Shown here: piece by piece, positions 15,603 to 41,343 of the stretch
Numbering within the stretch: position 1 is the stretch's first letter
Layout: every line of letters begins with the position of its first letter
Source: Escherichia phage vB_EcoP_C
DNA: 44,970 nucleotides
Reading direction: 5' to 3' (one strand)
Sequence record: NC_047807.1
Translations under genes and position numbers: made by a program
The notes under the pieces: model-generated
What the model saw: the letters and a program-made list of their open reading frames with translations, nothing else
Told to the model about the DNA's origin: nothing
The model's database searches: none

Positions 15603-15618
15603 GTCTCACATGTGAGAC
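15603..15618. repeat. Perfect 16-bp palindrome GTCTCACATGTGAGAC
   Basis: One of six perfect copies of GTCTCAC-NN-GTGAGAC; intergenic between internal virion protein genes. Confidence 0.8.
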
Positions 15619-15635
15619 AAGCCTTGAGTTAGGTA

Positions 15636-18584
15636 CTACAATTTAACTTTACCTACCTTAGAGTCTTTAGCTAACTTGGTAGGTGCAGCCTCATAAACCT
15701 GATACCAGCCATCGGCTCCAATACGTTTATGCGTCCACGCAGAAACAGAGCCTGCTGGCATAGGTCCACCAAACTTAACCCACATAGAGCCATCTTCCCT
15801 CGTCTCCACTTCTGTGATCTTAGGTACACCACCAGCAGCTGCCATATTGTATGCCTCAGCGCGTCGCTTCAGTAGGCCCGGAATACGTTTACCTTCACTT
15901 GATGCAGTACCCAGCATTTCGATAAAGCCTTCCGTAAGCTTACCAGCTTTGAATGCAGCAAGAGCACGCGGTGAGTTCTGGATTCCACCTTTACCTAAAT
16001 TGTAGGTTAAATCCATCAAGCCACGTTGCTGTGCAGGATGCATCTGGTCAAACGGAATCTTCCAGTCACGAGTAGGAGGCACATGCTTCTTAGCATCTTG
16101 CTCCATAAGAGCGCGAGCCTTACTCTCTGTAAGCTGAGACATAGACCCTCGATAGGGAACTAGTTCATCGCCAATCTTAATATACCCGTTTCGCTTCTCT
16201 TCTTCCGTTAAGAAATGACCGTAACCGATAGACTCACCGTGAGCGTCTTTATATGGAGTAAAGGTTCCAGTTGCCTTATTAAAGCCAACTTTATCTTTAT
16301 TCTCATCCATAGCTAGCTTGTCATAGAATTGTTGCATATTACCTCGATAGTTAATCTCGAAGTTAGAAGGCAGATTCTCACCAGAAGCAAAAGCAGAAGA
16401 CATGAGGAAGTTAGCTAGTCCAAATTTACCAATATCTTTGGCAGTTGGTTTAGCTGGCATAGGCTCTTGTGCACCAATATCTGTACGATACGGGTGAACA
16501 TACTCGCCTTTATCTCGTTCCTCTACTTTCTTCTGATAGGCAGAATCTAGTAGTGAAGTGGTATCTAAAGAGGTTACAGGGATTACTCCAGAAAGAGGGC
16601 GACCTGCTGCACCAGCACGAATCACAAAAGTTCCTTTCTGCTCATTGTAGTCAATGTACACATCATCCTTAGTTTCCCACTCTTGAAGCTCCTTTTTCAA
16701 TTCTGGCATCTGTGTTTCTACATACCTACCAAGCGCCAGAGGGACATCGGTAGGGTTTACACCTTTCCCAACTGACATAAGCATATCAGATGCAGAAGTG
16801 TAATCACCTTTAATGAAATAGCCACCGGAAGTCTTTGCATCCTCTGATTGAGTGTAGCGTTTATTGCCCCAAGTAATTAAAGCCTTCTTGATAGAATCCA
16901 TGTTACGCATACCGCTAGACCACAACATATTGGCCTTAGCTCGTAACTCTTCTTCCGCAATAGCTTTACCTAAGTCTGACACTTCGGTTTTACCATCAAA
17001 CCAGCCAGCACCAGATACCTCATCCAGTGCATCTCCAATAGCTGAGTTGAACTTCTTGTTTTCCTTCTCAGTACGAGAGAATTTCTGCTGTGCTTCACGC
17101 GCAAACCTTGCAGCCTGCAAAGGTGTCTCTCCCATTTGTAGTGCAGTGTTGTAGTTATCCATGTAGCCATTCACCGTGTCACCAAAGACACCTCGGCTCT
17201 CTTCTGGCAACTGTTCCCACAACTGACGAATAGTCATCAACTCCTGTGGTTCGCCCTTGGCAAAGTGCTCAGGCGATAGCATAGATTCCATGGCTTTGAT
17301 ACGAGACTCAAAGGTATCATCCACTAAGCCTTTGGAGTTCATGAATTGCAGGCGCTGCACTTCCACTGCACCACGAATAGCTTCAGCCTCTTGACTGTAA
17401 GGGTCCAAGCCACGTTGCTTGATTTGCTGGTCTGCATAAAGTTGGCTATCCTGTTTGATAACATCAATGTAAGCCTTCTTCTCTTTATCAGTCTTACCTT
17501 GGAAGCCAGTCAGGCGGTCGGAGTAAAGCTCACGTCGCATATCCTGCATTGCACCTAGCTCTGCATTCTGCTTAGCCCGTTGGCGCATCAGTGCCTCTAG
17601 CTCTGGATTAGAGAAGACATAGTTACCTGTCAGATTATTAATGTGCTGTGCTCGTTCCAACAATTCTTCATCAGTTAAATCACCTGCAAGGTATGATTCT
17701 TTAACTTCGAAAGACATACGAGTTACATCAGCTACATTATTCCTAGCCCAAACTGCATTACCACTAGTGATGGCTGTGATAAGCTGTGGATTCTTAGCAT
17801 AAACAGAAACACCCTTATCGTCCTTCACATACTTCAGGGCTTCAGCCATGCTAACATCACCGCCTTGTGCAAGTGAAATTGCTCGCTGGACTAACTTCTT
17901 GTGCATCTGTTCAGGTAGTAATCCTTGAGTAAGACCTTCGCGGATTCGTTCCTGTAAAGCATAGCCAGAAGCTTCAGGGTCAATATTAGAATCCCAAGTA
18001 GAAGCCACTCGCCCGTCAAAGGTATCCTCACGGTCTGCTTGTTCACGGTCAAGTTTATGCTGGGTCCGTGTAGCCCAAATCTGAGGCTGCTGTTCTTGGA
18101 AGACATTAGTGACCATACGCATAGTATCTTTGTCACCTTGCAACTCAGGGTATTGCTGGAACAGCTTATTCTGCATCTCATTACGAGAGTCAACCATAAG
18201 TTGTGTCCACTCGTCATCCGTCCCTTGGAAACGAGTAGCCATGTCTTTCATTCGTGCTGCTTCATCATTAGCTAGCAGTTGAGCTTTGACAAGCATGTTA
18301 GCACGAGCGCCACCACGAGTTGCATCCTCAGAAGGCATTAATCCGTTATATGCCCGTTCCATTTGAACAACCTTATCTTCCTCAATCTTCTGATTAAGGA
18401 TACCAGTGGTAACATCAGCCACGCTGCTTGCTGCACGAATAAGGTCTTCGATAAATCTACTACCGGAGGTAGAAGCCACGCCAGCCTCCACACCTCCCAC
18501 TTGTTGAGGTGCAAAGGTCATGACATTAGGAGAAGTGGCCTGCACTTGTGGCAGACCTTGTACTGCTTGTCGCTCAATTGCCAT
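15636..18584 (-). CDS. Internal virion protein with lysozyme-like (GH24-type) domain near C-terminus, 982 aa
   Basis: Segment YKDAHGESIGYGHFL resembles the T4-lysozyme YKDTEGYYTIGIGHLL block; T7 gp15/16-like position. Confidence 0.75.
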   Translation of the reverse strand: MAIERQAVQGLPQVQATSPNVMTFAPQQVGGVEAGVASTSGSRFIEDLIRAASSVADVTTGILNQKIEEDKVVQMERAYNGLMPSEDATRGGARANMLVKAQLLANDEAARMKDMATRFQGTDDEWTQLMVDSRNEMQNKLFQQYPELQGDKDTMRMVTNVFQEQQPQIWATRTQHKLDREQADREDTFDGRVASTWDSNIDPEASGYALQERIREGLTQGLLPEQMHKKLVQRAISLAQGGDVSMAEALKYVKDDKGVSVYAKNPQLITAITSGNAVWARNNVADVTRMSFEVKESYLAGDLTDEELLERAQHINNLTGNYVFSNPELEALMRQRAKQNAELGAMQDMRRELYSDRLTGFQGKTDKEKKAYIDVIKQDSQLYADQQIKQRGLDPYSQEAEAIRGAVEVQRLQFMNSKGLVDDTFESRIKAMESMLSPEHFAKGEPQELMTIRQLWEQLPEESRGVFGDTVNGYMDNYNTALQMGETPLQAARFAREAQQKFSRTEKENKKFNSAIGDALDEVSGAGWFDGKTEVSDLGKAIAEEELRAKANMLWSSGMRNMDSIKKALITWGNKRYTQSEDAKTSGGYFIKGDYTSASDMLMSVGKGVNPTDVPLALGRYVETQMPELKKELQEWETKDDVYIDYNEQKGTFVIRAGAAGRPLSGVIPVTSLDTTSLLDSAYQKKVEERDKGEYVHPYRTDIGAQEPMPAKPTAKDIGKFGLANFLMSSAFASGENLPSNFEINYRGNMQQFYDKLAMDENKDKVGFNKATGTFTPYKDAHGESIGYGHFLTEEEKRNGYIKIGDELVPYRGSMSQLTESKARALMEQDAKKHVPPTRDWKIPFDQMHPAQQRGLMDLTYNLGKGGIQNSPRALAAFKAGKLTEGFIEMLGTASSEGKRIPGLLKRRAEAYNMAAAGGVPKITEVETREDGSMWVKFGGPMPAGSVSAWTHKRIGADGWYQVYEAAPTKLAKDSKVGKVKL

Positions 18585-19306
18585 TAAATACCTCTTGTTC
18601 CAGATGAATATGTGCGAGAATCAGTTAAGGCTTTACCCAATGCCTTGCCAGACTTACTACCAGTTACATAGGCAGATGCCAGACTTGGAATACCTTTAAC
18701 CAAGGTATTCATAGCAGAAGGCTTCTTAAACTCACGCATCTGCATCTGACCACCACGTTGGATAGACTTAAGCTGGTTGGTGAAATTAATCTTCTGATTC
18801 TCATAGTTATCAATGATAGTACTCTGGTTTCTGCCGCCATCTGCTGCTAAGTCATTAAGCATAGAGGACACAGAATTACCACCAGTACCAGTAGCCCCAG
18901 CAAGTAATGCAACCTGTGCTCGCTGCTGTAGCAGTGAAGCCTGATTACTGATTGCATCTGCATGATATTGTTTAGCAGCAGAACGTTCTGCGTCTGCCAC
19001 TGTCTTGTACGCCTCTTGTGTAGCAATAAGCTGCTGCCGCCATTGCTCTTCTTGTGCTTTCTTCATCGCCTTGGCTTCATCACTTCCACCAAAGAGATCA
19101 CCAATCAAGCCTAACCCTTGAAGGCCAGCACCAAGAAGGCCAGCATTAGAGAAACCAGCAGTGGAGCCACTTAGGAATCCACCTAGTGAACCTAGCAAAC
19201 CTCCGCCACCTGCGGCAGCACCTCCAGCAGCGGCTGCTGCACCGCTGCCTGCAAACATACTACCAATAGAAGACATACCAGACATAACGGCTGAACCTAT
19301 AGCCAT
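18584..19306 (-). CDS. Internal virion protein, Gly/Ala-rich (about 240 aa)
   Basis: Start moved to ATG at 19306 (AAGGAGGG SD, TAATG overlap with upstream gene); low-complexity G/A-rich N-terminus. Confidence 0.65.
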   Translation of the reverse strand: MAIGSAVMSGMSSIGSMFAGSGAAAAAGGAAAGGGGLLGSLGGFLSGSTAGFSNAGLLGAGLQGLGLIGDLFGGSDEAKAMKKAQEEQWRQQLIATQEAYKTVADAERSAAKQYHADAISNQASLLQQRAQVALLAGATGTGGNSVSSMLNDLAADGGRNQSTIIDNYENQKINFTNQLKSIQRGGQMQMREFKKPSAMNTLVKGIPSLASAYVTGSKSGKALGKALTDSRTYSSGTRGI

Positions 19307-21708
19307 TAGACCCTCCTTTTGGTTGGATTGTAGCTCCCTTCCCACTCAATATCGCGGAGCTGGAATGTGTGAGGTGATTCTACAATAATACGATAAACAG
19401 CATCCGTACTCTTAGCTCTCAGTGGGAATCTGAAGACACCTTCTCTTGGTTCAACATAACCTACTGTATTGTTGAGAGCACCACCTATACGGTTTGACGC
19501 TAGCACCCTGCGTACTTTACCACTCTTCACATTCTTAACCTCCACGGAGAAATCAGGATACATATCAAGATTAAGGTGAACCAACCCCACAACAGGTACA
19601 TCAATATAGGATACACGGTCTTGCCTATCTCTGATAACTACAGGTGTTGGTTCAAACTCTTGAGGGTAAATCTGACCAACAATAACCTTCGCTTTTACGT
19701 GGCTATCATCATGCATATCAAAGGTTGTAGACAAGGTGTTATCACCGGGATTATATTTGAATAGGAAAGAACCACCAATATATGAATCCCACCCGTCTAT
19801 TAAGATGCAATCCAAAAGCTCTGGGTTAGTAGGAGTCCAAGGAAGCGGTTCAGACACCCATTCATCTTCTGCTTTAAAATGCTTGAAGACTAACTCTGCT
19901 TGCCTATCCATCCTAATGCGGTCATTCAAACCATAGGTTAATGCATCACCCATGTCCATCTTCTCCAGATATACGCCATCCCCTCGCTCAAGGAGTAGGT
20001 AAAGTAATTCACCAGAATAAAATAGACCTCGCACCTTTGTACCTACAGGCCACTTCCATACATGCCATGCTGATTGTACACGGTCTGTTCCTTGCCATAA
20101 CCAATCATAGCAGTAGATTATGTTACGGTACTTATCGGTAGTGACAAGTAACCTGTTGACATTGGTGCTTGCTGCCATGTTGGTAATGTTACCTTCGATG
20201 AGTTTATTCACATGACTTGTGATTGCTTGTGCCTTCTTAGTGTCACTATAAGAGTCTGTATAGAACTCTCGTACACCAGAGTAATAACCATCATTAGTGG
20301 CAAACATTACCGATTCACCAGTTACTACTGGCTTCACTTTATTGTTCACTTCAAATGTTGTAACAGGCTTAAGCAATGCATTTGACTTCTCTAAAGGCTT
20401 ATCGCCTGGCAGTATGAATTGTGACTTATCAGAGAACAATACGGTAGCTCCATCTAAGGTCACTGCATGTTTTAGCTGGTAAACTTCACTCGCATCTGAG
20501 AAAATATCAAATGGGTCAGTTGCCAATGCAGAGATAACCGTATAACGAAAGAAATCGAAGAAATATGATGTACGAGAAGCAATAACCGCTTCACCTGCTG
20601 TAAAGCATAGGCGGTTCTGCACCATGAACATTCCACCTATTGTCTGGGGTACTTCCTCATCAATAAAAGAGGGCATAGGGTTAGTCAAGTCATCCCCTAC
20701 TTTACGGTCTTCCCAATCACCTTGTCTTATCTTGAATTGAGCTATGCCGTCAATGATACCTGTACGTTCAATAATGTAAGGCATTGTGCCTTTATCAAAC
20801 CCAAGTAATACATCAGCAGCTATTGTTTCTTTCCAAGACACAAGGTTTCCCTCTTTAGGCTCAGCTTGCAGCCAGTAACGAGACTCAGGTTTGCTGCCAG
20901 TAGGCCACACTTGTACTTTATAACCAGCAGGCGCACGAGAAGGGAGTAGGTCAGTAGAGCTAACTTTATTCTTGATAGCCACTAAGTCCTTACCTTTTGC
21001 ACCATCGGTAGTTGTTACTGTGAAACTTTTACCATCGCGTCTCTCTATAAATATGCTCGTACCATCTCTTTGTATTTCATAGTCATTCACACCACTCCAT
21101 TGCTGCAACTTGGAGTACAATTCAGAAGTGATACGTTCCGTTCGTATTTGTTCAACATGTTCTGCACTTCCCCCATCTGGTGTTTTAAAACTAGCAGCTG
21201 TAGTTCCATTAATTATGATAGAATAAGATGTACCGTATTGACCATATGCACAAAACACAATGGCTTTATCTCCAACTTTAGGTGACTTCCTATTACTAAC
21301 TTTAACCACTTTCCTACGGTTAAGCATAAAAGTAACATCAGCTATAGTCATGAATTGCACATCTTCCCTAGGGTTAACAACTTCAGAAAGGTAGGTCATA
21401 GGTGCATCTTGAGAGGTGACATTGCACTTGCGTCCATGCTTATCAAATATCTCTGGCACTTGCCCCTTCTTTAAGGTGAAGAAATACTCTTCATCCCCCT
21501 CACCCCTGCGATAATGGTGCGTTGCCATATTATCTGTACCTTCATCCAAGAGCTTAGCAATGTGAGTTGTACCCATGCGGGATTGAGTCCCATTCACTAC
21601 ATCAGGGACCATGTTCACCATAGTCGTACATTGGCCATCAAGACGTACCGCTGGTGGTTGCTGGCTAATCCCTTGGATTTGCCTCCCTAATGAACCTTGT
21701 ACTTCCAT
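19306..21708 (-). CDS. Tail tubular protein B (T7 gp12-like), about 800 aa
   Basis: Size and position; start moved to ATG at 21708 with GGAGGA SD, overlapping upstream stop. Confidence 0.8.
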   Translation of the reverse strand: MEVQGSLGRQIQGISQQPPAVRLDGQCTTMVNMVPDVVNGTQSRMGTTHIAKLLDEGTDNMATHHYRRGEGDEEYFFTLKKGQVPEIFDKHGRKCNVTSQDAPMTYLSEVVNPREDVQFMTIADVTFMLNRRKVVKVSNRKSPKVGDKAIVFCAYGQYGTSYSIIINGTTAASFKTPDGGSAEHVEQIRTERITSELYSKLQQWSGVNDYEIQRDGTSIFIERRDGKSFTVTTTDGAKGKDLVAIKNKVSSTDLLPSRAPAGYKVQVWPTGSKPESRYWLQAEPKEGNLVSWKETIAADVLLGFDKGTMPYIIERTGIIDGIAQFKIRQGDWEDRKVGDDLTNPMPSFIDEEVPQTIGGMFMVQNRLCFTAGEAVIASRTSYFFDFFRYTVISALATDPFDIFSDASEVYQLKHAVTLDGATVLFSDKSQFILPGDKPLEKSNALLKPVTTFEVNNKVKPVVTGESVMFATNDGYYSGVREFYTDSYSDTKKAQAITSHVNKLIEGNITNMAASTNVNRLLVTTDKYRNIIYCYDWLWQGTDRVQSAWHVWKWPVGTKVRGLFYSGELLYLLLERGDGVYLEKMDMGDALTYGLNDRIRMDRQAELVFKHFKAEDEWVSEPLPWTPTNPELLDCILIDGWDSYIGGSFLFKYNPGDNTLSTTFDMHDDSHVKAKVIVGQIYPQEFEPTPVVIRDRQDRVSYIDVPVVGLVHLNLDMYPDFSVEVKNVKSGKVRRVLASNRIGGALNNTVGYVEPREGVFRFPLRAKSTDAVYRIIVESPHTFQLRDIEWEGSYNPTKRRV

Positions 21709-22445: not shown

Positions 22446-22458
22446 GAACCCTCCTAAC

Positions 22459-22508: not shown

Positions 22509-22516
22509 CATAGGTA

Positions 22517-32081: not shown

Positions 32082-32453
32082 TCAAAACTCTTCCTCTTCG
32101 CTAACCGGAGCTTCCGGTGCAGACACTTCTACTGCCGGAGCTTCAGCTTCTTCAGCAGCTTTAACTTCTTTCACTGGTTTACCAGCAGCAATCCAATCCA
32201 GATATTCAGCTACGATGTTAGCCTTACCGATCTGGGCTTTGTCAGCCTGCTCAGGGAAGCAAGCACGAGCGAACTCCAGACCATCAGCGAAGTTACCCAT
32301 GCTGTCAATCTTAGCCTGAGCTTCTTCACGGGTATCGTAAGCCTTAGTACCAGCTACCAGTTGATCAGCTTCATCAACGATAATGAAAGACTCAACGGAT
32401 ACCAGAGCAGCACCTTTAACAACACGGTTTACGATAGTTTCAATCTTGAACAT
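32082..32453 (-). CDS. Hypothetical protein with acidic C-terminal tail ending ...SEEEEF (123 aa)
   Basis: AAAAGGAG SD; directly downstream of promoter 32504-32526. Confidence 0.6.
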   Translation of the reverse strand: MFKIETIVNRVVKGAALVSVESFIIVDEADQLVAGTKAYDTREEAQAKIDSMGNFADGLEFARACFPEQADKAQIGKANIVAEYLDWIAAGKPVKEVKAAEEAEAPAVEVSAPEAPVSEEEEF

Positions 32454-32503: not shown

Positions 32504-32526
32504 CTCTTCTATAGTGTCCAGTAAAT
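32504..32526 (-). promoter_or_regulatory. SP6-type phage RNAP promoter (ATTTACTGGACACTATAGAAGAG)
   Basis: Promoter family member; intergenic. Confidence 0.75.
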
Positions 32527-32541
32527 ACCGGACACCGATTT

Positions 32542-32557
32542 GTCTCACACGTGAGAC
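32542..32557. repeat. Perfect 16-bp palindrome GTCTCACACGTGAGAC
   Basis: Copy of GTCTCAC-NN-GTGAGAC; about 15 nt upstream of promoter 32504-32526. Confidence 0.8.
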
Positions 32558-32786: not shown

Positions 32787-33593
32787 TTAATATTCCGCGT
32801 CCTCATCCATCTCCGGTGCAGGAGTATCTTCTGCTTCAGGTACTTCCTGTGGAACAGACTCACCAGTATCCAGAGATTTACGATTAGCTGGGGTAGCATC
32901 TTCCTCGTCTTTCTTCTTAGCCTTCTTCCATTCAGGGTCTTCTTCACGAGCAGCTTTGATAATAGCTTCTACGTGAGAGCCAGCAACAGACAGGTTCTTA
33001 CCACGAGGTGTCTCGTTCAGGAAGTATTGACGTACCAAGTTAGCTGGGATGTCATCAAGGATTTCTTTGGTCAGCTTGTCGAAGGTGATATGACCTGTCA
33101 TAGACAGACCTTCCTCTTCTACCTGAGCCAGTACAAGCTTCTTCAACTTATCAGGCATACCGCCAAAGCCTTTCCAGTTAACATACTTGAAAGTACCATC
33201 ATCATTCTTGTCGCCAGAGCCAACCATAGTTGCAGTCAGACATTCACCGATAAAATCATCGAAGCCACCCAGCAACTCTTTAGGGTCAACTGCATTCAGG
33301 AACTTAGTCAGTGTTGCCTTATCACCAGACTTCAGAGGCACAGCCATCCATTGTTCCATGCGAGAATCATCTTCATTCTTATCGTCGTCACCCATCAGGA
33401 TAATCTTAACAAGAACAAAGTTTGCTGGCTTCTTAACTTCAGTGGTATTACCTTTCTTAAAGATATCTTGGAAGGAACCAACATGAATGATGCCAGAGAT
33501 TACTGCTTCATGATCACCAACTTCAGGGTTCTTAAATACTTTACCTTCAGCTTTAGTAACCTGAGCACCAAAATCAAAATCACCACGTGCCAT
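32787..33593 (-). CDS. Candidate ssDNA-binding protein (acidic C-terminal tail ...EMDEDAEY), 268 aa
   Basis: Position in replication module; acidic tail ending in an aromatic residue as in T7 gp2.5; primary sequence not obviously gp2.5-like. Confidence 0.5.
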   Translation of the reverse strand: MARGDFDFGAQVTKAEGKVFKNPEVGDHEAVISGIIHVGSFQDIFKKGNTTEVKKPANFVLVKIILMGDDDKNEDDSRMEQWMAVPLKSGDKATLTKFLNAVDPKELLGGFDDFIGECLTATMVGSGDKNDDGTFKYVNWKGFGGMPDKLKKLVLAQVEEEGLSMTGHITFDKLTKEILDDIPANLVRQYFLNETPRGKNLSVAGSHVEAIIKAAREEDPEWKKAKKKDEEDATPANRKSLDTGESVPQEVPEAEDTPAPEMDEDAEY

Positions 33594-34418: not shown

Positions 34419-34441
34419 TCCTTCTATAGTGTCCAGTAAAT
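34419..34441 (-). promoter_or_regulatory. SP6-type phage RNAP promoter (ATTTACTGGACACTATAGAAGGA)
   Basis: Promoter family member; intergenic downstream of DNA polymerase. Confidence 0.75.
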
Positions 34442-34509
34442 CATGTTAGACTAAATAAGTAGGAATAAGTTATTCATAAAGGCCACTCGTAAGTGACCTT
34501 GAGTATAAC

Positions 34510-34608
34510 TCAGTCGTAGTTACCATCACAATCTGGGTCAATGCCAGAGAAAGCCCAGAATACTACCATAAATAATATGACTCCAAGAATAATAAAAGAT
34601 GCCTGCAT
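34510..34608 (-). CDS. Tiny membrane protein (32 aa), translationally coupled
   Basis: Hand translation MQASFIILGVILFMVVFWAFSGIDPDCDGNYD; ATG overlaps preceding stop (TGATG). Confidence 0.3.
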   Translation of the reverse strand: MQASFIILGVILFMVVFWAFSGIDPDCDGNYD

Positions 34609-34724
34609 CAATCGTAACCCTCCTCTTCATCAGGTATATCTAATCGCATACTTCCATAGCAAGCAAGCATAAGGAATATAAGAAAGAAAGTGGAGAATAG
34701 GCAAACAATATCAAACCTGTCCAT
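34608..34724 (-). CDS. Tiny membrane protein (38 aa), translationally coupled to DNA polymerase
   Basis: Hand translation MDRFDIVCLFSTFFLIFLMLACYGSMRLDIPDEEEGYD; ATG overlaps DNA polymerase stop. Confidence 0.3.
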   Translation of the reverse strand: MDRFDIVCLFSTFFLIFLMLACYGSMRLDIPDEEEGYD

Positions 34725-37270
34725 CAGTGTGTTTCCTTCCAACTTGCACCAATCTTATACTCACCTGCCATCGGACAACGCATCTTCAGGTACTGACCCG
34801 CCCAAGTCATTGCGTCGGCAATGATATGCCCTGCACGGTGATAGCGACGCTGGCAATGAAGTACACCAGCATCAGCATCAACGCTAACGAGATTTGCAGC
34901 AGACCACATACGTCCTTCAGAATCCACATGAACACGTTTCTCCTCTGCATCGAACACTGCTTTCACAGCAGCCTTCTCTGTTTCGAACCCTTCTAAGGTG
35001 AAAGGCAAGTCGTAGTTGAGATACAAGACCTCATCTTCAGGGACTTCCATCTGGATTTCATCGTGCACGTTAGCTATACCGCAAGGGTTTCCCATGCTAT
35101 CTAAGGCCACACCTTCCTTGCGCATCACTGCAAACGCCCTGACCAATGCGTATTTCATACACAGAGAACCAGTCATCTGGAGTAGTACGTTAAGCATAGT
35201 GTGCTCTTTAAGTTCACCACCAGACATACGGATGCGACCCCAATGACCATCAGGTGCTTGTAGGTAGCCAAACTTGTTACCTTGTGCGATAACATTCTCA
35301 CGAAGACGTGCAAGAGATGGTAGTTCAACCTCAAATCTTGCCACAACTTCCTCCATTTCTTCCTCAGTAACACCACATACTGCTGCAAGGTTAGCTATAC
35401 CAGACCCATATAGGAAGGCATATATAAATGTCTTCGCCATGTCACGCTTAGGAAGACCAGCCTTCATTTGATTATGGGTGTGAATGTCACCATGCAGTAC
35501 AATATCTTGATATTCAGGGTCATTCATGAAGTGAGACAGTACACGTAGTTCAAGACCAGCACCATCACAACCAAGGATTAGCTTACCTTTACCGGCTATG
35601 AATAAATCACGTAAAGGATACAAACCACGGGCAGGAATATTAACCACGTTACGATGACGCATACGGAACGTAGAAGTTCCAATACTAATAGCAATAGCTG
35701 GCACACGCCATTCTCCGTCATCCTTGTCTGACGTAGGCCAGCATCCGTACCTTTCGTAGTATTGCTGCGCATTGATTCCTAACTCCTTGTTAAATGCTAC
35801 AGGTACAAGGCCGCGACACTTTCGTATACCAGCTTGCGAAGGCCACACCCCCTTCTGGTCGAAGGCTTCAACGTCACCACGGTTGAGGATCTGACCACGA
35901 CGGGATACGAGTATGTACCATGCAGCGATACCCAAGCACCAATCAGGGACTGTTTTACCTTCACGTGCGGCTCTCTCTTGCCATAAAGTAAGGGACTTTT
36001 CATTTATCTTCCCACTCCAAGGCTTGGGTAATACGCCATGCTCATCGAGATGCGCTTGCTCGGTATCGTTAAATTCAACACCTTTCCATCCATAATCATA
36101 GAGCACTTGCTTAACTGTATCCCTGTTACCCAAGGGAATCTCTTCGAAAGTAACAGGCGAGTAAGCGCCAATCCACTTGATGCTTGGCGTGTCATTACGG
36201 TTTCCTCTAAGGTGAGGAAAGTCTTTCTTGACGCTAGCCGACCAATCACCAGACTTAGTAGTGACACTCCATACTGTCTTGCGATCTCCTCGTCTCTCGG
36301 CATGAAGAAAGTGTGAGGGGTCAAGGACAGTAGGTATATTGTTGCTAGCTCCATACTCATTTGCGCGTTGGCATACTTCATTCTTTTCTTCCGGTTTAAA
36401 AGGTTTAGACTTGATACGCATAGGCATGTGCGGACGGAACGCTGCGACTGTCTCATCAATCTTAGCGTCCAATTCCTCGCATCGTGCTAATGCTTTATCT
36501 ATATCCAGACGGAATCCACGCTCGGCCTGACGGCTCATCTCCAGCGCCACAATGGACTCCATGTGGAAGGCTGTCTCAATACCTAGGCCAGTGCGTTTAT
36601 TCACGCCACGGCGTTTGTGCTCCGTCCATTCTCCGTTAAATAGCCAGAGGAATAGGTCACGGCCTATCGCCACGTCCTCGCGTACACGATGTACCATGTG
36701 GTCAGTTAGTTTAGACCAATCCTCGTTCTCCGGCTTATAACGGCCTATACGAATGCCGTGCGCCTCAATTGAGTGAGGGGCTACGTTACCCATGCCTTTG
36801 GCGTATGCTTGCGGAGGGAGGCGTCTATCGGGGTTTAACAGGCGACTCATGACCAGCGTATCCATGACGCGTACCGGACACAGGTCAGCGCGGAGTCTGC
36901 CCTTGCCGCGTCTCTCGGTATAGTTAAAGCCTTTCCAGATATCAGGGAATGCTTTCTCAAATAGAAGGCCGTCGTACCCTAGGAAGTTCTGTGAGACGAT
37001 GGCTTCGCAGTGCTTAAGGAAGTTAACACCGTCAACCAATGTTCCATCTTGATGGCCTTCCCATTCTTTTAGGCGTTCTCTTGCTTCAGGGTCACGCATC
37101 TCGTATGGGTCAAAGAAGAGGAACTCCTCTGTAGTAAGCAAATCCATGCAGCAAATGATGTGCACATCTTCGCGGTGGCCATATCGGATAGCATCCAGCA
37201 GGCCTTTAGCCTCAGAATCCATCACTAAGATGCGGCCTTCTGCTTCCTTCTTCCAATCAATTGATTTCAT
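34724..37270 (-). CDS. DNA polymerase (T7 gp5-like family A), about 848 aa
   Basis: Pol A motif B region (KTFIYAFLYGSG) and 3'-5' exonuclease N-terminal region; track start is TTG, first ATG at 37270 has GGAG SD. Confidence 0.9.
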   Translation of the reverse strand: MKSIDWKKEAEGRILVMDSEAKGLLDAIRYGHREDVHIICCMDLLTTEEFLFFDPYEMRDPEARERLKEWEGHQDGTLVDGVNFLKHCEAIVSQNFLGYDGLLFEKAFPDIWKGFNYTERRGKGRLRADLCPVRVMDTLVMSRLLNPDRRLPPQAYAKGMGNVAPHSIEAHGIRIGRYKPENEDWSKLTDHMVHRVREDVAIGRDLFLWLFNGEWTEHKRRGVNKRTGLGIETAFHMESIVALEMSRQAERGFRLDIDKALARCEELDAKIDETVAAFRPHMPMRIKSKPFKPEEKNEVCQRANEYGASNNIPTVLDPSHFLHAERRGDRKTVWSVTTKSGDWSASVKKDFPHLRGNRNDTPSIKWIGAYSPVTFEEIPLGNRDTVKQVLYDYGWKGVEFNDTEQAHLDEHGVLPKPWSGKINEKSLTLWQERAAREGKTVPDWCLGIAAWYILVSRRGQILNRGDVEAFDQKGVWPSQAGIRKCRGLVPVAFNKELGINAQQYYERYGCWPTSDKDDGEWRVPAIAISIGTSTFRMRHRNVVNIPARGLYPLRDLFIAGKGKLILGCDGAGLELRVLSHFMNDPEYQDIVLHGDIHTHNQMKAGLPKRDMAKTFIYAFLYGSGIANLAAVCGVTEEEMEEVVARFEVELPSLARLRENVIAQGNKFGYLQAPDGHWGRIRMSGGELKEHTMLNVLLQMTGSLCMKYALVRAFAVMRKEGVALDSMGNPCGIANVHDEIQMEVPEDEVLYLNYDLPFTLEGFETEKAAVKAVFDAEEKRVHVDSEGRMWSAANLVSVDADAGVLHCQRRYHRAGHIIADAMTWAGQYLKMRCPMAGEYKIGASWKETH

Positions 37271-37475
37271 AGATTGCTCCAAAGTATTTAACCCTATAAC
37301 CAAGTCCTAATAAAGAATTAGGTGTTAGATGAGGATAGTTATATGCTAATTCATTGTGGTACTTATCAAACAAAGCAGCCTCTTTCTTAGACCTGCAATG
37401 CCCACACTTACCATCAATACGACTGCGATAACCTTTACCGCAAGAGCAAACCTTACTGACTTTAATAGCTTTCAT
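37257..37475 (-). CDS. Small Cys-rich (zinc-finger-like) protein, about 72 aa
   Basis: CxC...CxxC pattern (VCSCGKG...CGHCR); start moved to second ATG with GAGG SD. Confidence 0.5.
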   Translation of the reverse strand: MKAIKVSKVCSCGKGYRSRIDGKCGHCRSKKEAALFDKYHNELAYNYPHLTPNSLLGLGYRVKYFGAIYEIN

Positions 37476-37569
37476 ACATTGCCTCTGTTTCGTAGTAGTC
37501 ATCTGAACGTTCAGGTTTTGAGTTCATTGAATCTTGGAAATCCCAATCAGAATCATAATCACGTGGCAT
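37462..37569 (-). CDS. Small acidic protein (35 aa)
   Basis: Hand translation MPRDYDSDWDFQDSMNSKPERSDDYYETEAMYESY; strong GGAGG SD. Confidence 0.35.
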   Translation of the reverse strand: MPRDYDSDWDFQDSMNSKPERSDDYYETEAMYESY

Positions 37570-37600
37570 AATGCACCTCCAATCAATATGATGAAAGGCT

Positions 37601-37616
37601 GTCTCACGTGTGAGAC
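37601..37616. repeat. Perfect 16-bp palindrome GTCTCACGTGTGAGAC
   Basis: Copy of GTCTCAC-NN-GTGAGAC; intergenic. Confidence 0.8.
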
Positions 37617-37626
37617 AACCCTTTAC

Positions 37627-37836
37627 TTATCGACTGCGTGTTACAGTTAATTTCTGGCCCATGTATTTGCCTTGGTGTGGCTCCCAAGTTGCCTCTTTGA
37701 TAACTTGCTCGCGCGTCAGGCTATTCTTCTTGGCCTCAGCCATAGTTAACTGTGCGAACAGGAAGGCTTGGTTAGTAATCTTGGCTTGCAGGTCTTCATG
37801 ACCATCGAACATTTTAAGACTATGTTTATTCTGCAT
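37627..37836 (-). CDS. Hypothetical protein (69 aa)
   Basis: ORF track; ATG start. Confidence 0.5.
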   Translation of the reverse strand: MQNKHSLKMFDGHEDLQAKITNQAFLFAQLTMAEAKKNSLTREQVIKEATWEPHQGKYMGQKLTVTRSR

Positions 37837-38044
37837 GTTTCACCATAAAGCTGCCGATTACATTAAACTCCTCACGGAACTCTTTTTCAGTCAAATGACC
37901 GAAAAGTTCCATCTGAAAACTTGCACTAAGACTGGCACCTATTAATGCAAACCCCTTTGAAGTACCATAGGGCTTAACACCATCTGGTGCTACAACTGCA
38001 TAGCATTTATGAGGTCCACGCATATAAATTAATACCTTAGTCAT
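37826..38044 (-). CDS. Hypothetical protein (72 aa)
   Basis: ORF track; strong TAAGGAG SD. Confidence 0.55.
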   Translation of the reverse strand: MTKVLIYMRGPHKCYAVVAPDGVKPYGTSKGFALIGASLSASFQMELFGHLTEKEFREEFNVIGSFMVKHAE

Positions 38045-38054
38045 GATTAACTCC

Positions 38055-38738
38055 TTAGATATTCACGTATGTTTCTTCAGTAACGATAGGTAGGTACAGT
38101 AATTCTTCACCATTTAAGATGTGAAGACCTTTCAACCCTTGCTTACGAATAATGCCTTCTATAGTGTCGGCAAAATGCTTATTAATTACACGTCGTTGCG
38201 TACCTTGTTCTGTGATTGCATGGTCAACATCCATGATTCGCACAGGTACATTTGGATGCATCATGGCTTCTCCAATCTTTACCATAGCTTGTCCTGTGGA
38301 TTTACCCAATGCACGAGTATTAAACTGTGTAACACCTAATGCAGTGCCACATTGCTTAATCATCTCACTTTGAGTCTTACCAGTGATTACATTGCGACGC
38401 TCTTTCTTGAGTGTGGTTTTCTTTTCTGCCATGTACTCTGCTAGTGTTTGAGGACCAGCACCATAATAAAGAGGAGCTAGGAAATTCTTAAGCATCTGGC
38501 GAGCACATTTATCGCAAACCTCATCATGTATGCACTTACATTGATTGTTTATCTCTACAATCTTTTCAAGATATTTATGTGCTGTCTTCTTGTGGTAATA
38601 TTGCTTAACACCACTGCGATATTCTACATAATACAGGTTCTCACCTACAAAGGTTACAACACCACGGCAAAGATAGCGACTTGAAACTTTCTTGATGTTG
38701 CGTACAAAGTCACCTACATTCAACACTAAGTTATACAT
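38055..38738 (-). CDS. Hypothetical protein with Cys cluster (about 227 aa)
   Basis: ORF-track frame, start moved to ATG at 38738 (GGAG SD); CKCIHDEVCDKC cluster. Confidence 0.6.
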   Translation of the reverse strand: MYNLVLNVGDFVRNIKKVSSRYLCRGVVTFVGENLYYVEYRSGVKQYYHKKTAHKYLEKIVEINNQCKCIHDEVCDKCARQMLKNFLAPLYYGAGPQTLAEYMAEKKTTLKKERRNVITGKTQSEMIKQCGTALGVTQFNTRALGKSTGQAMVKIGEAMMHPNVPVRIMDVDHAITEQGTQRRVINKHFADTIEGIIRKQGLKGLHILNGEELLYLPIVTEETYVNI

Positions 38739-38777
38739 AATCAATCTCCAGTTATTTAATGTACTTAATAAGAGCCT

Positions 38778-38793
38778 GTCTCACAGGTGAGAC
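38778..38793. repeat. Perfect 16-bp palindrome GTCTCACAGGTGAGAC
   Basis: Copy of GTCTCAC-NN-GTGAGAC; intergenic. Confidence 0.8.
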
Positions 38794-38810
38794 AAGCCCT
38801 GATAAATACA

Positions 38811-38972
38811 CTAGATAAGGCGTGTTACAATAAAGAACATTGACATAAGAAAACCAGATGCAACGATAAGTTTCACAGCTTTCTTGAATCCATATCGTGC
38901 AGCATAATCTGCGATCACAAGCATGAATAGGATCTCAATACCGATATTCAATACTGGTTTAATAATTTCCAT
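38811..38972 (-). CDS. Small membrane protein (53 aa), translationally coupled to primase/helicase
   Basis: Hand translation MEIIKPVLNIGIEILFMLVIADYAARYGFKKAVKLIVASGFLMSMFFIVTRLI; ATG overlaps helicase stop (TAATG). Confidence 0.45.
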   Translation of the reverse strand: MEIIKPVLNIGIEILFMLVIADYAARYGFKKAVKLIVASGFLMSMFFIVTRLI

Positions 38973-40960
38973 TAAAACTCCTGTTCATCGTCAAAGGTTG
39001 TCTCTTCTATAGTGTCCGGTAAATCAGGTACTTCTTGTTGCCTTGCTTCACCTGTATCAAATGACTTAGTACGGGCTTGTGGTTCTAGCAGTCGGCCCGT
39101 AGCGATGTCACCCTTAAGCATAATCTTAGTACCAGAGTAAATCCCTTGATCCCTATCTTTAACACAGGAAATATAGGTAGTAGTTCGCTCATCTAGTGTC
39201 TCTGCCCTCGTGTTCCTTTCGATGCCCAAGGCATATGATGCCCAAAAGCCGATAGCGCCTGAGCCTCGGAAGTCAGAAAGGATAACCTCGCCACCTTCTT
39301 CGTGTTGGGTACGGTTTGCCGGAGGACGTGTAAGGTGAGAGACAAGGAATATAGTAACTGGGTGTCGGTCTTTGATAGTACCAATCCGCTTGACGCATTC
39401 ATCAAGTGCACCAACCTTCCCACCAAAAGCACGCTCATCTAATTTAATCCCCGTTAAGTTATCAATGATGATATTAGAAATGCCCATAGCCTCAAACTCT
39501 AGGCAAGTTTGCTCTACCTTCTCCATAGAATAGTCGCCTTCTAGGTCAGCCACAAATAGCTTTCCTGTATCAGCCACATAATCAATGGCAGCGTTAGCTT
39601 CTTCCTCGGTGTAGTCGAACACCTCACGGTATCCGTCTTCTTTCGGGTCGTTGGTTGGCGGTAACTCAATACGCTTATCAATCCACTTGCCGATAAAAGC
39701 ACGGGACACCTTGACCATTGGGTCTTCTGTAGAAATGATGCCTACAGATTCACCGTGTTCTTCAATGAGGTGCTTAACCACTTCGCGAAGGAACTCAGTC
39801 TTACCTACACCAGAGCCTGCACCTACAATGATAAGCTGGTTCTTACGAATACCTAGCGTTACCTTGTTCAGCTTAGGCCAAGGCCATGATAACCCTTGCT
39901 CTGGACGTGCAGCCTTGAGCTTATCCCTTTGAGATGCGATAGATTTAATCTGGCTACCAAAGACTTCATCAGATGACTTGGCATTAAACCAAGCATCAAC
40001 AAACTCTTTAGCCTTGCCAGCCATCAATGCCTTGTTAGCATCTTTGCAACCAGAGGGATATTCGAGGATGTAGGATTTGCCAGGAAACAGGCGAGCAGCT
40101 TGTTGGTTCTGCTTCTGCCCTACCTCATCCCCATCAAAACCCCATATAATCTTCTTGAATTGGGCGATATGCTCACGGTTCTGCACTATCTCTTCAAGGC
40201 AAGACTCGCCTTTGTTGACAGACCATACATGGTATGGCTGGCCTTCCCACTTAGTACCCTTGGCAGAATCAAGGAGCATCTGCTGCGCTGCTAGTGCATC
40301 AAGTTCACCACCTACAATAAGCAAGCAATCCTTTCGTCTCCCCTTGTCTAACACGTGAGACAAAGTATTCATACCGAAAAGATCTTGCATACCAAAGAGT
40401 TTACCTAAATGACCAAACTTAAAATCTTTAGGTAATGTGCGACACTTAGCGCCTACTAGCTCACCTTTTTCGAAGCGTGGATAGTAATGCCGTGAGACTC
40501 TACCCTCTTCATCGTGCCCAACACGTACATCATACAATGCGCAAATGTCGCCGCGAATGTGTCTGGAAACAAGGTTCTTACGCTTAAGCGTGAGGAACCA
40601 TTCAACATCAAGTTTCCACTCTGCTTCTTGCTCTGCCCTTTCTTGTTCATTCATGACCTCCCAACGGTCTTTCATACGCATACCACCAAGTGCGATGGCG
40701 CGTAGCTTAGGGTCGCTAATCTTCCCTTCCTTCTCCATCTCTTTAAACTGAGAAGGTGTATATTTGATGTTTCCAGTGATAGGTAACTCTGTTATCTCGA
40801 TGCCACCTTCCGGCTTATGGTAGTAGGGTCTGCCATTATCATGGAAGTGACCACGGTTACAGTATCCTGCCCCGTCGTCAAAGATCATTAAATGATTGCC
40901 AGTAATATCATGTCCGTTCTTTTGGCAAGCAGGACACGGTACATTCTGAATAATAGCCAT
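38972..40960 (-). CDS. DNA primase/helicase (T7 gp4-like), 662 aa
   Basis: N-terminal Cys4 zinc motif (CPACQ...CNRGH), Walker A GAGSGVGKT; acidic C-terminus ...DDEQEF. Confidence 0.9.
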   Translation of the reverse strand: MAIIQNVPCPACQKNGHDITGNHLMIFDDGAGYCNRGHFHDNGRPYYHKPEGGIEITELPITGNIKYTPSQFKEMEKEGKISDPKLRAIALGGMRMKDRWEVMNEQERAEQEAEWKLDVEWFLTLKRKNLVSRHIRGDICALYDVRVGHDEEGRVSRHYYPRFEKGELVGAKCRTLPKDFKFGHLGKLFGMQDLFGMNTLSHVLDKGRRKDCLLIVGGELDALAAQQMLLDSAKGTKWEGQPYHVWSVNKGESCLEEIVQNREHIAQFKKIIWGFDGDEVGQKQNQQAARLFPGKSYILEYPSGCKDANKALMAGKAKEFVDAWFNAKSSDEVFGSQIKSIASQRDKLKAARPEQGLSWPWPKLNKVTLGIRKNQLIIVGAGSGVGKTEFLREVVKHLIEEHGESVGIISTEDPMVKVSRAFIGKWIDKRIELPPTNDPKEDGYREVFDYTEEEANAAIDYVADTGKLFVADLEGDYSMEKVEQTCLEFEAMGISNIIIDNLTGIKLDERAFGGKVGALDECVKRIGTIKDRHPVTIFLVSHLTRPPANRTQHEEGGEVILSDFRGSGAIGFWASYALGIERNTRAETLDERTTTYISCVKDRDQGIYSGTKIMLKGDIATGRLLEPQARTKSFDTGEARQQEVPDLPDTIEETTFDDEQEF
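39002..39024 (-). promoter_or_regulatory. SP6-type phage RNAP promoter (ATTTACCGGACACTATAGAAGAG) inside 3' end of helicase gene
   Basis: Promoter family member. Confidence 0.7.
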
Positions 40961-40963
40961 AAC

Positions 40964-41092
40964 TTAGAACTCCCACGCTGCGCGTTTAGATGCACGGTCA
41001 CGGACAGGTTTATTCAGCTTCTTGCCTTTCTTCTGCCCTTCTTCCATGTCAAAACGGTTAGCTTTACGGGTCATCTTCTCAAAGTTACGCAT
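40964..41092 (-). CDS. T7 gp1.1-like small basic protein (42 aa)
   Basis: Hand translation MRNFEKMTRKANRFDMEEGQKKGKKLNKPVRDRASKRAAWEF; recalled similarity to T7 gene 1.1; GGAG SD. Confidence 0.55.
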   Translation of the reverse strand: MRNFEKMTRKANRFDMEEGQKKGKKLNKPVRDRASKRAAWEF

Positions 41093-41117
41093 GGTTAAAT
41101 CTCCAAAGTGAGTTAAT

Positions 41118-41140
41118 CTTATCTATACTGTCCGGTAAAT
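41118..41140 (-). promoter_or_regulatory. SP6-type phage RNAP promoter variant (ATTTACCGGACAGTATAGATAAG)
   Basis: Promoter family member with C to G change in the core (ACAGTATAG); 5 nt downstream of a palindrome. Confidence 0.5.
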
Positions 41141-41145
41141 ACGAA

Positions 41146-41161
41146 GTCTCACATGTGAGAC
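41146..41161. repeat. Perfect 16-bp palindrome GTCTCACATGTGAGAC
   Basis: Copy of GTCTCAC-NN-GTGAGAC; immediately upstream of promoter 41118-41140. Confidence 0.8.
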
Positions 41162-41301
41162 AACCTAGGTCTGCCCTTCCTCTGAGTGGTAATAAGAGGA
41201 AGGAAGAAGGTAATAGGTATTCCTAGATAACCTATATAACCTTTAATACCTATTACTTCCTTTATATCCTTTATCTTCCCTTTCTTTCCCGTCTCCGACG
41301 G

Positions 41302-41324
41302 CTATCCTATAGTGTCCGGTAAAT
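41302..41324 (-). promoter_or_regulatory. SP6-type phage RNAP promoter (ATTTACCGGACACTATAGGATAG)
   Basis: Promoter family member just downstream of RNAP gene; 3 nt from a palindrome. Confidence 0.7.
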
Positions 41325-41327
41325 AAA

Positions 41328-41343
41328 GTCTCACATGTGAGAC
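41328..41343. repeat. Perfect 16-bp palindrome GTCTCACATGTGAGAC
   Basis: Copy of GTCTCAC-NN-GTGAGAC; immediately upstream of promoter 41302-41324. Confidence 0.8.

Follow-up and report, generated by a model that had tools for sequence, protein, structure and literature searches.

A 16-bp palindrome, GTCTCAC-NN-GTGAGAC, is genuinely repeated in the window (the whole 44,970-nt stretch of DNA that was analyzed), and it was found to be one allele among genome-specific palindromes located at syntenic places in SP6-like phages and in more distant Autographiviridae. The ParB/KorB-like early protein gp6 is probably the protein that docks on it, as judged from a co-variation of protein and palindrome, which is correlative. 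Moreover, three copies formed the tips of larger predicted RNase III-type hairpins. Each of the two readings given in an earlier note on this DNA, a symmetric protein-binding site and an RNA hairpin, was partly right.

Palindrome copies and their alleles in related phages

Exact search of the window returned six perfect copies (15603, 32542, 37601, 38778, 41146, and 41328), reproducing all six coordinates listed previously, and none of 100 dinucleotide-preserving shuffles contained a match. When up to two mismatches were allowed, 8 sites were found vs 0.11 expected. As had been claimed, all six perfect copies lay between ORFs. Half-sites isolated from palindromes were at chance level (5 in the window vs approximately 5.5 expected); thus, the full palindrome was regarded as the unit. 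The window itself is a reverse-complemented K1E-like Vectrevirus, with its genes on the minus strand.

Three perfect copies were stand-alone and adjacent to promoters. On the minus strand, they stopped 4, 6, and 16 nt ahead of TTTACYGGACAsTATAG, or 3, 5, and 15 nt when counted to the promoter A at -17, in agreement with the range of 3–15 nt stated in the earlier note. The copy at 41328..41343 (GTCTCACATGTGAGAC) was located past the RNA polymerase gene with its terminator hairpin and 4 nt ahead of promoter 41323-41307(-), and extended RNA structure was absent (z -0.4). The copy at 41146..41161 was located 6 nt upstream of promoter 41139-41123(-), with two tandem promoters, on either side of it, a position equivalent to that of T7 R1.1 between phi1.1A and phi1.1B. 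The third copy, at 32542..32557, began 1 nt past the gp17 stop codon and was located 16 nt upstream of promoter 32525-32509(-), ahead of gene 18.

Two further copies carried one mismatch each. The degenerate copy described at 2515-2530 in the genome-left-end region was confirmed, but its coordinates had been off by one base; it occupies 2516..2531 (GTCTAACGTGTGAGAC on the plus strand), and the first sigma-70-like early promoters (2492-2463 and 2448-2420, minus strand) follow 25–70 nt downstream. The other, overlooked in the earlier note, was intragenic, at 40346..40361 in the primase/helicase gene (codons ~200–205, translated S-H-V-L-D), and its mismatch avoids an in-frame TGA.

When the palindrome was looked for in related genomes, its positions were conserved across genera and its sequence switched between alleles, including GTCTCAC, GTCCAAC, GTCTAAC, GTTTCAC, and GTCCCAC. 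Syntenic palindromes, the same or allelic, were present in SP6, K1-5, and phages of Klebsiella, Proteus, Pectobacterium, Erwinia, Pantoea, Pseudomonas, and Vibrio, as well as in metagenomic relatives with primase/helicase identity down to approximately 42%. The allele of the window was common to phages of E. coli, Erwinia, Pantoea, and Pseudomonas. Edwardsiella phage DT115P1 carried GTACTAG-N4-CTAGTAC, and T7 had neither a recurrent palindrome nor gp6. Within one genome, all copies had a single allele in common, whereas flanks and promoters varied; mosaic genomes with a foreign allele at one site were also found (K1-5, at 9570, and L012). The spacer was 2 or 3 bp, sometimes both in one genome (Pm5460, L162, and L177), and arm-to-arm transitions were tolerated in some genomes. 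The distance between palindrome and promoter ranged from 0 to 16 nt, with no fixed geometry relative to the polymerase. In a horizontal-transfer test, no K1E protein was nearer to Era103 than to SP6.

The genes for RNA polymerase, primase/helicase, and ligase carried intragenic copies, located at conserved codons. In other genera, the primase/helicase gene carried its copy at an equal offset (599 nt), each in its own allele. Such copies matched the allele of their genome and altered the protein sequence (SHVLD, SNVLD, and VSRCET), departing from the allele only where a perfect arm would give TGA. This allele-following with protein change indicates that selection acts on the nucleotide sequence itself, a finding not easily squared with a role in cleavage or termination.

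gp6 as the candidate palindrome-binding protein

The early gene gp6 is located at 44108..44970 on the minus strand, with the RNA polymerase gene just downstream of it, and the window end cuts off its first ~8 codons. Its N-terminal domain appeared to be a divergent DUF3102-like domain with a ParB/KorB-fold helix-turn-helix (HTH) starting at residue ~10, a fold assignment based on weak Foldseek E-values. The putative recognition helix (FGIKKAQCYKLMSVARVF) is encoded at 44771-44824, with the codon of the specificity-linked Lys66 at 44795-44797. With the DUF3102 profile (PF11300), the gp6 homolog L163 scored 28.5 bits (cut-off 24.4), six other homologs matched in the same region with E of 7e-4 to 0.1, and the window protein gave no match; the Vibrio-phage homologs are named 'DUF3102 domain-containing' in UniRef. 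A profile query of a large protein database gave 3 matches only.

A Pfam scan of gp6 gave no ParBc (ParB/Srx CTPase) match, and since the HTH starts at residue ~10, there is no room for an N-terminal domain of this type. No ParA/IncC-type ATPase was annotated in K1E, SP6, Era103, or the other relatives examined, nor was one among the Pfam matches of the gene neighbourhoods. The lack of a CTPase domain and of an annotated ParA partner, unlike in ParB systems, counts against gp6 as the binding protein, as do the arm-to-arm transitions, the foreign alleles of mosaic genomes, and the varying distance to promoters.

In its favor, gp6 was found in every palindrome-bearing lineage examined, and the residue after its conserved Tyr (K66 in K1E) tracked palindrome position 5. 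This residue was K or R with C5 alleles (GTCTCAC, GTTTCAC, GTAACAC, and GTCCCAC) and N or H with A5 alleles (GTCCAAC and GTCTAAC), and a Y-to-S change accompanied the change from C3 to T3 in the palindrome. In a blind test on new contigs picked by the gp6 motif alone, the allele was as predicted in 8 of 8. One pair from this test, L199 (K, GTCTCAC) and L200 (N, GTCCAAC), had near-identical flanks and gp6 proteins that were 69% identical. The GTTTCAC half-site of the Vibrio-phage allele is identical to the parS half-site. As the specificity contacts of KorB lie partly outside its HTH, a residue-to-base code for gp6 is something we infer. The co-variation nevertheless supports the protein-binding DNA site that the earlier note had preferred.

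Accepting gp6 as the binding protein, the palindrome would be an operator or docking site for dimers of early gp6, contacted through the N-terminal ParB/KorB-type HTH. The phage carries approximately 8 sites, which cluster among the early and DNA-metabolism genes, namely, ahead of the first early promoters of host type, immediately before three phage promoters, in the primase/helicase gene, and at three RNase III hairpin tips. Because a hairpin tip is already palindromic, placing a DNA palindrome there costs a compact genome nothing. KorB has 12 OB operators scattered over plasmid RK2, and by this analogy bound gp6 would most likely modulate or insulate early and middle transcription, its own operon included. 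A rigid dimer would not ordinarily accommodate spacers of both 2 and 3 bp; a flexible linker together with a distal coiled coil could permit the variation. A wider proposal is that SP6/K1E-type and many related Autographiviridae encode a minimal ParB/KorB-like regulator (gp6, DUF3102) with private genome-wide operators, and that changes at one or two positions of its recognition helix (K/R for C:G and N/H for A:T at position 5) switch its specificity; the prospects of this proposal being correct appear evenly balanced.

Other candidate proteins were set aside. The first column-discrimination test pointed solely to gp35/gp36, now regarded as a cassette replacement, and missed gp6, which was entered as ORF o180_863 (227 aa) with an internal ATG start and without the N-terminal HTH. 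For gp17 and gp25, candidates by presence/absence, no supporting evidence was found, and gp16 and gp18, with acidic tails ending in Y or F, seemed replisome-like rather than site-specific binders. PDB sequence searches gave no matches.

RNase III-type hairpins and other explanations

A bipartite hairpin of approximately two helical turns with an asymmetric internal loop was present at copies 38778, 37601, and 15603, with the T7 RNase III-site consensus and compensatory changes. All three are predicted on the minus strand. The hairpin at 38757..38813 (apical stem 38778-38793; dG -29.5, z -7.1) lies past the primase/helicase region (gp9.5) and ahead of gene 10, and covariation was seen in its alignment (A4). 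The hairpin at 37580..37636 (apical stem 37601-37616; dG -26.6, z -6.1) precedes genes 11.5/12 and the gene for DNA polymerase. In its alignment (A3), 10 of the 24 pairs had compensatory double changes and pairing reached 98.8%; none of 500 shuffles was as high as observed, and slid controls were 31–46% paired. The hairpin at 15581..15639 (apical stem 15603-15618), between gp35 and gp36, had flanks ACUCAAGG...UCUUUAUGAU that fit the consensus. The T7 consensus CUCAAGG...CCUUUAUGAU around the upper stem was fully matched at 15591-15628(-) and more weakly at 38778 and 37601.

At 34474..34510(-), approximately 34 nt upstream of promoter 34440-34424, a canonical T7-like RNase III site (ACTCAAGGTCACTTACGAGTGGCCTTTATGA) was found that lacks the palindrome, which shows that hairpin and palindrome are separable modules. 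Judged by structure and consensus, SP6-group phages carry T7-type RNase III sites. The three promoter-proximal copies had no bipartite hairpin. Accordingly, the RNA alternative of the earlier note held for three copies, as apical stems of larger hairpins of ~56 nt. The note's reasoning that a spacer of 2 nt rules out an RNA hairpin was oversimplified. The flanking stems contained many G-U pairs, whereas the 7-bp core was almost always perfectly Watson–Crick, which suggests that the core is under an extra, sequence-specific constraint. In a simple terminator scan, 41343-41328 and 41161-41146 gave only 6-bp stems with T-rich tails from the promoter; the extended hairpins had interrupted U tracts downstream. 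An Rfam search matched a group I intron only. 'Seven SP6 terminators' have been counted, and the characterized terminator t5 differs in sequence and is not a palindrome copy (Song et al. 2024).

A purely RNA element, serving RNase III or phage endoribonuclease processing, 3' end protection, or polymerase attenuation without any DNA-binding protein, is an unlikely explanation. It would account for the three consensus-bearing hairpins with strong covariation, for G-U pairs that function only on the sense strand, and for copies that often begin at the upstream gene's stop codon and end at a promoter or Shine-Dalgarno sequence; the canonical RNase III site holds an equivalent position at another promoter, and a variable spacer of 2–3 nt suits a loop. 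However, the stand-alone copies are 6–7 bp stems, which RNase III could not use at that length and which are no more stable than expected (z about 0), and structure alone explains neither the sharing of one sequence per genome nor the avoidance of G-U pairs in the core. Moreover, copies lie inside essential genes (RNA polymerase, primase, and ligase), ahead of the first early promoters, and just past the early terminator, where sense transcripts should be scarce, and the co-variation with gp6 would be a coincidence.

It is quite improbable that the palindrome is a single-stranded DNA hairpin or cruciform acting as an origin, priming, or fork signal in replication, possibly recognized by gp6 or the primase/helicase. 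Two copies flank a promoter and a purine-rich non-coding stretch past the RNA polymerase gene, the position of the T7 primary origin, copies cluster around replication genes, and intragenic placement fits a DNA-level role. However, SP6 primase recognizes GCA, which is missing from the motif, and the flanks gave no consistent primer; the primase-site idea was rejected. A role in fork polarity was also rejected, as asymmetric copies had no consistent orientation around any putative origin. Lamassu DdmABC senses hairpin-forming palindromes of T7-like phages at the DNA level (PMC11707656), which fits a DNA hairpin, but at 16 bp the palindrome is short to be extruded as a cruciform.

A selfish or structural repeat (REP/MITE-like or a module-boundary recombination hotspot), homogenized by turnover or gene conversion, is highly improbable. 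Genome-specific palindromic repeats at gene boundaries beside variable gene cassettes, and mixed alleles in mosaic genomes, would be expected of it, but the sequence switches in place at syntenic positions, 16 bp cannot support its own gene conversion, intragenic copies are retained at identical codons, and no RAYT/HUH or transposase-like gene was seen among the genes examined. A site for a conserved host factor (transcription factor, nucleoid protein, or gyrase) would suit the GTCTCAC allele recurring across four host genera, but is scarcely credible, since alleles vary among phages of closely related hosts, tracking the phage protein rather than the host, and we know of no E. coli regulator site that resembles the palindrome in the right arrangement.

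Significance and comparison with known systems

No description was found in the searchable literature (palindrome sequences, SP6-like hairpins, and Molineuxvirinae), and an earlier mention in the 2004 SP6/K1-5 genome papers is possible. The sequence comparisons point to a new arrangement, a KorB-like operator network without a ParB CTPase domain or ParA in virulent SP6/K1E-type phages. Textbook gene control in the T7 supergroup consists of two RNA polymerases, RNase III, and lysozyme and, to our knowledge, includes no sequence-specific DNA-binding regulator with dispersed operators. If true, gp6 would add a phage-encoded, polymerase-independent layer of control or genome organization. The T7 lysozyme brake is, as far as we know, absent from SP6-like phages, and the gp6–operator network could replace it. 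The co-variation also yields a testable recognition rule, in which a single K-to-N swap should retarget gp6. A natural series of orthogonal HTH–operator pairs would be usable beside SP6/K1E polymerase expression systems, and a first function would be suggested for DUF3102. K1E, K1-5, SP6-like phages, and their Klebsiella relatives are therapy candidates, and defences that sense hairpins, Lamassu DdmABC among them (PMC11707656), could be triggered by conserved palindromes.

Enterobacterial REP elements are likewise species-specific palindromic repeats in intercistronic regions, and by this likeness both may stabilize mRNA 3' ends and bind proteins. However, REPs are longer, imperfect, present in hundreds of copies, and mobilized by RAYT transposases, whereas the phage palindromes number about 8–10 at fixed syntenic positions, with no transposase. 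The T7 RNase III sites (R0.3, R0.5, R1.1, R1.3, R4.7, and R18.5) share with the three palindrome hairpins the architecture of upper stem, asymmetric internal loop, and lower stem, the consensus ACUCAAGG...CCUUUAUGAU, and the promoter-adjacent and between-gene placement. Their apical stems are imperfect, with G-U pairs, and are not DNA palindromes, whereas the three palindrome hairpins are tipped by a perfect palindrome repeated across the genome, which also occurs alone and inside genes.

ParB–parS, Noc–NBS, SopB–sopC (with the centromere repeats scattered over phage N15), and VirB differ from gp6, which lacks both a CTPase/spreading module and a ParA; partition is of no use to a lytic phage, and the palindrome arms are set 2–3 central bp further apart than in parS. 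Compared with KorB and its OB operators on the IncP plasmid RK2, gp6 has its HTH at the very N-terminus, with neither a ParB/Srx CTPase domain nor an IncC/ParA partner. Its candidate sites are 16–17 bp with 7-bp arms, its genome is that of a virulent T7-supergroup phage with its own single-subunit polymerase, and KorB-like repression by gp6 is suggested by analogy.

Palindrome copies and their counterparts in related phages

The window phage is a member of the genus Vectrevirus (Molineuxvirinae). Escherichia phage vB_EcoP_R shared 100% identity with the window across 12 kb, and K1E and K1-5 shared approximately 96%. Relative to the conventional map, the window is permuted and reverse-complemented; every long ORF runs on the minus strand, and the plus-strand GC skew is negative throughout. 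Genes were named after the K1E annotation. The window ends (1 and 44970) showed neither an overlap nor a seamless join, and the gp6 ORF runs past the window end, with about eight first codons missing. The large-terminase gene is split (40A/40B in K1E) and contains, at 9472–9720 (minus strand), a group I catalytic intron matched by Rfam (61 bits, E 3.5e-13); the adjoining ORF at 8894–9427 (minus strand) is annotated in K1E as a homing endonuclease (gp40.5).

Exact matches to the 16-bp palindrome GTCTCACNNGTGAGAC were found at 15603, 32542, 37601, 38778, 41146, and 41328, which confirmed the six perfect copies of the earlier note, and none of 100 dinucleotide-preserving shuffles contained one. 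When mismatches were permitted, two further copies were obtained at 2516–2531 and 40346–40361. The former is the degenerate genome-end copy claimed previously, which is present but was misplaced by one nucleotide at 2515–2530. Half-sites in isolation occurred at a chance-level frequency. On the coding strand, the copies at 41328, 41146, and 32542 finish 4, 6, and 16 nt, respectively, ahead of TTTACYGGACAsTATAG phage promoters, so the claim that three copies lie close upstream of a promoter also held. At 38778, 37601, and 15603, complementarity continues into the flanks. Another inverted repeat, GTGTCC-N10-GGACAC, at 32509–32540 (minus strand), overlaps the upstream half of the pre-gene 18 promoter and recurs in K1E, K1-5, Koku, and SP6-like genomes.

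The palindrome is conserved in relatives at the same map positions, either as the same 16-mer or as another allele, i.e., a different genome-specific arm sequence. The shared positions are the left end, two copies downstream of the RNA polymerase gene, a copy within the primase/helicase gene (nt offset 599), and copies downstream of that gene, upstream of the DNA polymerase gene, upstream of gene 18, and in the gp35–gp36 gap. At these positions, GTCCAAC-N2/3-GTTGGAC replaces the window palindrome in SP6 (where the form is mainly GTCTAAC..GTTGGAC), Klebsiella phage Koku, Proteus phage Pm5460, and Pectobacterium phage PP1. Beside a different promoter, ATTAACCACCCAGTATAGAAG, the 16-mer of the window is found unchanged in two further phages, Era103 of Erwinia and Nifs112 of Pantoea. 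Pseudomonas phage Alpheus and its relatives, whose primase/helicase shares only ~45% identity with the K1E protein, have at least eight copies of a GTCTCAC palindrome with a 3-nt center. Further alleles in a 60-locus sample were GTCTAAC/GTTAGAC, GTCTGAC/GTCAGAC, GTTTCAC/GTGAAAC, GTTCACCGCGGTGAAC, GTAACAC/GTGTTAC, and GTACTAG-N4-CTAGTAC. T7 contains no recurrent palindrome.

Each genome uses one allele across all copies, apart from rare mosaics: K1-5 (L004, 9570) has a GTCCAAC-type copy at the pre-DNA-polymerase hairpin and GTCTCAC at the other sites, and a Citrobacter-phage-like contig (L012, 3222) has a foreign allele at the post-helicase hairpin. The center is 2 or 3 bp, at times both in one genome; some copies tolerate an arm-to-arm transition, and the spacing between palindrome and promoter is variable. 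In Eracentumvirus, a palindrome pair (7022–7072 in Era103, L006; 6736–6786 in Nifs112, L032) brackets ATTAACCACCCAGG, which resembles a promoter from −17 to −5 but has no TATAG initiation region; this segment may act as a decoy for polymerase binding or as an origin element. The internal virion proteins gp35 and gp36 (12263–18584, minus strand) share only 37–42% identity with the corresponding proteins of SP6 and of the Klebsiella and Proteus phages, against 80–90% for neighboring genes; this difference suggests that the two genes are a replaced cassette in Vectrevirus.

RNA hairpins and intragenic copies

The earlier note had offered an RNA hairpin as an alternative to a protein-binding site, and this found support at three copies. 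Those at 38778, 37601, and 15603 sit at the tips of ~56-nt bipartite hairpins in which an asymmetric internal loop separates a 13-bp upper stem from a lower stem of 9–11 bp (folding energies of −26 to −29.5 kcal/mol; z scores of −5 to −7), but folding revealed no excess structure at the left-end copy or at the three copies close to promoters (z about 0). In cross-genus alignments, compensatory changes preserve both helices. In the case of the pre-polymerase hairpin, 98.8% of cells were paired and 10 of 24 pairs had double changes, values attained by 0 of 500 shuffles; slid controls gave 31–46% pairing. Because many pairs take the G-U form solely on the sense strand, the transcript is the folded species.

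Folded T7 RNase III sites have the same architecture, with the consensus ACUCAAGGUC...GGCCUUUAUGAU, and the copy at 15603 reads ACUCAAGG-cuuGUCUCACauGUGAGACagg-UCUUUAUGAU. Because of this shared architecture and consensus and the compensatory changes, the three copies are considered to cap predicted T7-type RNase III processing signals. At 34474–34510 (minus strand), ~34 nt upstream of the promoter at 34440–34424, there is a canonical T7-like site, ACTCAAGGTCACTTACGAGTGGCCTTTATGA, that contains no palindrome; thus, SP6-group phages carry T7-type RNase III signals. Hairpin and palindrome are separable modules. G-U pairs abound in the flanking stems, whereas pairing in the 7-bp core is perfectly Watson–Crick, which points to an extra sequence-specific constraint on the core. 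The Pm5460 record labels the post-helicase hairpin a terminator, and seven SP6 terminators are cited by Song et al. (2024). Repeats of TATCAAGGCAC...GCTCTTTAACAAT around 952, 1214, and 1556 (~950–1560, minus strand) may serve in processing or termination of early transcripts.

Copies matching the allele of the genome are also held by conserved codons of the RNA polymerase, primase/helicase, and ligase genes. In GTCTCAC genomes the intragenic copy is G TCT CAC GTG TTA GAC (SHVLD), and its sole arm deviation, TTA for TGA, is exactly the one that prevents an in-frame stop. The corresponding copy encodes SNVLD in GTCCAAC genomes, and the polymerase-gene copy of GTTTCAC genomes encodes VSRCET. The pattern is indicative of selection at the nucleotide level. 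An element that cuts or terminates the mRNAs of these essential genes is unlikely, and a DNA-level site fits better.

Co-variation of the gp6 recognition helix with the palindrome

The candidate palindrome-binding protein is gp6, whose gene (44108–44970, minus strand) is an early gene directly upstream of the polymerase gene. It was found in all palindrome-bearing lineages examined and is absent from T7. The motif F-G-I-K-K-A-Q-C-Y-K-L-M-S-V-A-R-V-F (44771–44824) lies within the N-terminal ~115 residues. Pfam DUF3102 matched one gp6 homolog above the gathering score and six below it in the same profile region, and UniRef names the Vibrio-phage members DUF3102. AlphaFold2, given a 64-sequence alignment, predicted a confident six-helix domain (pLDDT 92, pTM 0.81) with a helix-turn-helix at residues 38–49 and 53–66, and Foldseek was in agreement (TM ~0.6, weak E-values). 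The modeled fold is of the ParB/KorB DNA-binding type. The remainder consists of an acidic linker, a predicted long helix, and a small helical domain, and contains no ParB CTPase domain.

At the position following the conserved Tyr (K66 in K1E gp6), every genome with GTCTCAC or GTTTCAC has K; this group comprises Vectrevirus, Era103/Nifs112, the Alpheus group, L068, L084, L174/175/181, and L177/186. GTCCAAC genomes and the GTCTAAC genomes L162/L164/L180 have N, SP6 has H, and the GTAACAC, GTACTAG, and GTTCAC lineages have R. A change of the Tyr to Ser accompanies C-to-T at the third arm position. By all other proteins Vectrevirus is nested among N/H-bearing relatives, and therefore its pairing of K with C at the fifth position is not simple shared ancestry.

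Eight further gp6 homologs were picked by the motif alone, and their contigs were retrieved afterwards. The contigs of P0166, P0180, P0171, and P0149 (K) carry GTCTCAC, that of P0165 (N) GTCCAAC, that of P0189 (H) GTCTAAC..GTTAGAC, that of P0142 (R) GT(T/C)CCAC..GTGGGAC, and that of P0145 from Vibrio phage 15E36.1 (S-K) GTTTCAC. All eight obeyed the rule that K or R goes with C, and N or H with A, at the fifth arm position. The loci L199 and L200 have nearly identical flanks but differ in allele, and their gp6 proteins, 69% identical, differ by K/N after the Tyr and S/N three positions further; the same double change separates K1E from Klebsiella phages. The recognition helix thus co-varies with the palindromes across the genomes compared, and this comparative evidence supports the earlier proposal of a symmetric protein-binding site on DNA.

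Proposed function and comparison with known systems

Dimers of gp6 probably bind the palindromes (such as GTCTCACATGTGAGAC) on duplex DNA, and such binding would, by analogy, modulate or insulate early and middle transcription. KorB at its OB sites on RK2 is the model for a transcriptional role of bound sites. This role is suggested by where the palindromes are found, namely upstream of the first sigma-70 early promoters, immediately before three phage promoters, and otherwise within the region of early and DNA-metabolism genes. In a compact genome, DNA-level palindromes would be placed in hairpin tips, short spacers, and compatible reading frames.

Conceivably, the palindromes have a role in organizing replication around the post-polymerase locus, where two palindrome-promoter units bracket a purine-rich non-coding stretch at the position of the T7 primary origin. 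The ~145 nt between these tandem units after the RNA polymerase gene (41162–41306, minus strand) have no obvious ORF. This stretch opens with a 5′ hairpin, CCGUCGGAGACGG, that SP6, Pm5460, Koku, and PP1 have conserved; the purine-rich tract comes next. Because its position matches that of the T7 primary origin (phi1.1A/1.1B), this stretch may be an origin or primer RNA. Elsewhere, gp16 (32787–33593, minus strand) ends in ...EMDEDAEY, gp18 (32082–32453, minus strand) in ...SEEEEF, and the primase/helicase in an acidic tail whose last residue is Phe (consensus ...DEEQEF). As T7 gp2.5 and gp4 have similar acidic tails that finish in an aromatic residue, gp16 and gp18 are probably an SSB-like protein and a partner in the replisome, both contacting the DNA polymerase.

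The gp6/palindrome system departs from the ParB family in two features: gp6 has no CTPase domain, and no ParA partner appears among the annotated genes of K1E, SP6, Era103, and other relatives. At the RNA level, its nearest known counterparts are T7 RNase III sites; at the DNA level, they are KorB-OB and ParB-parS.
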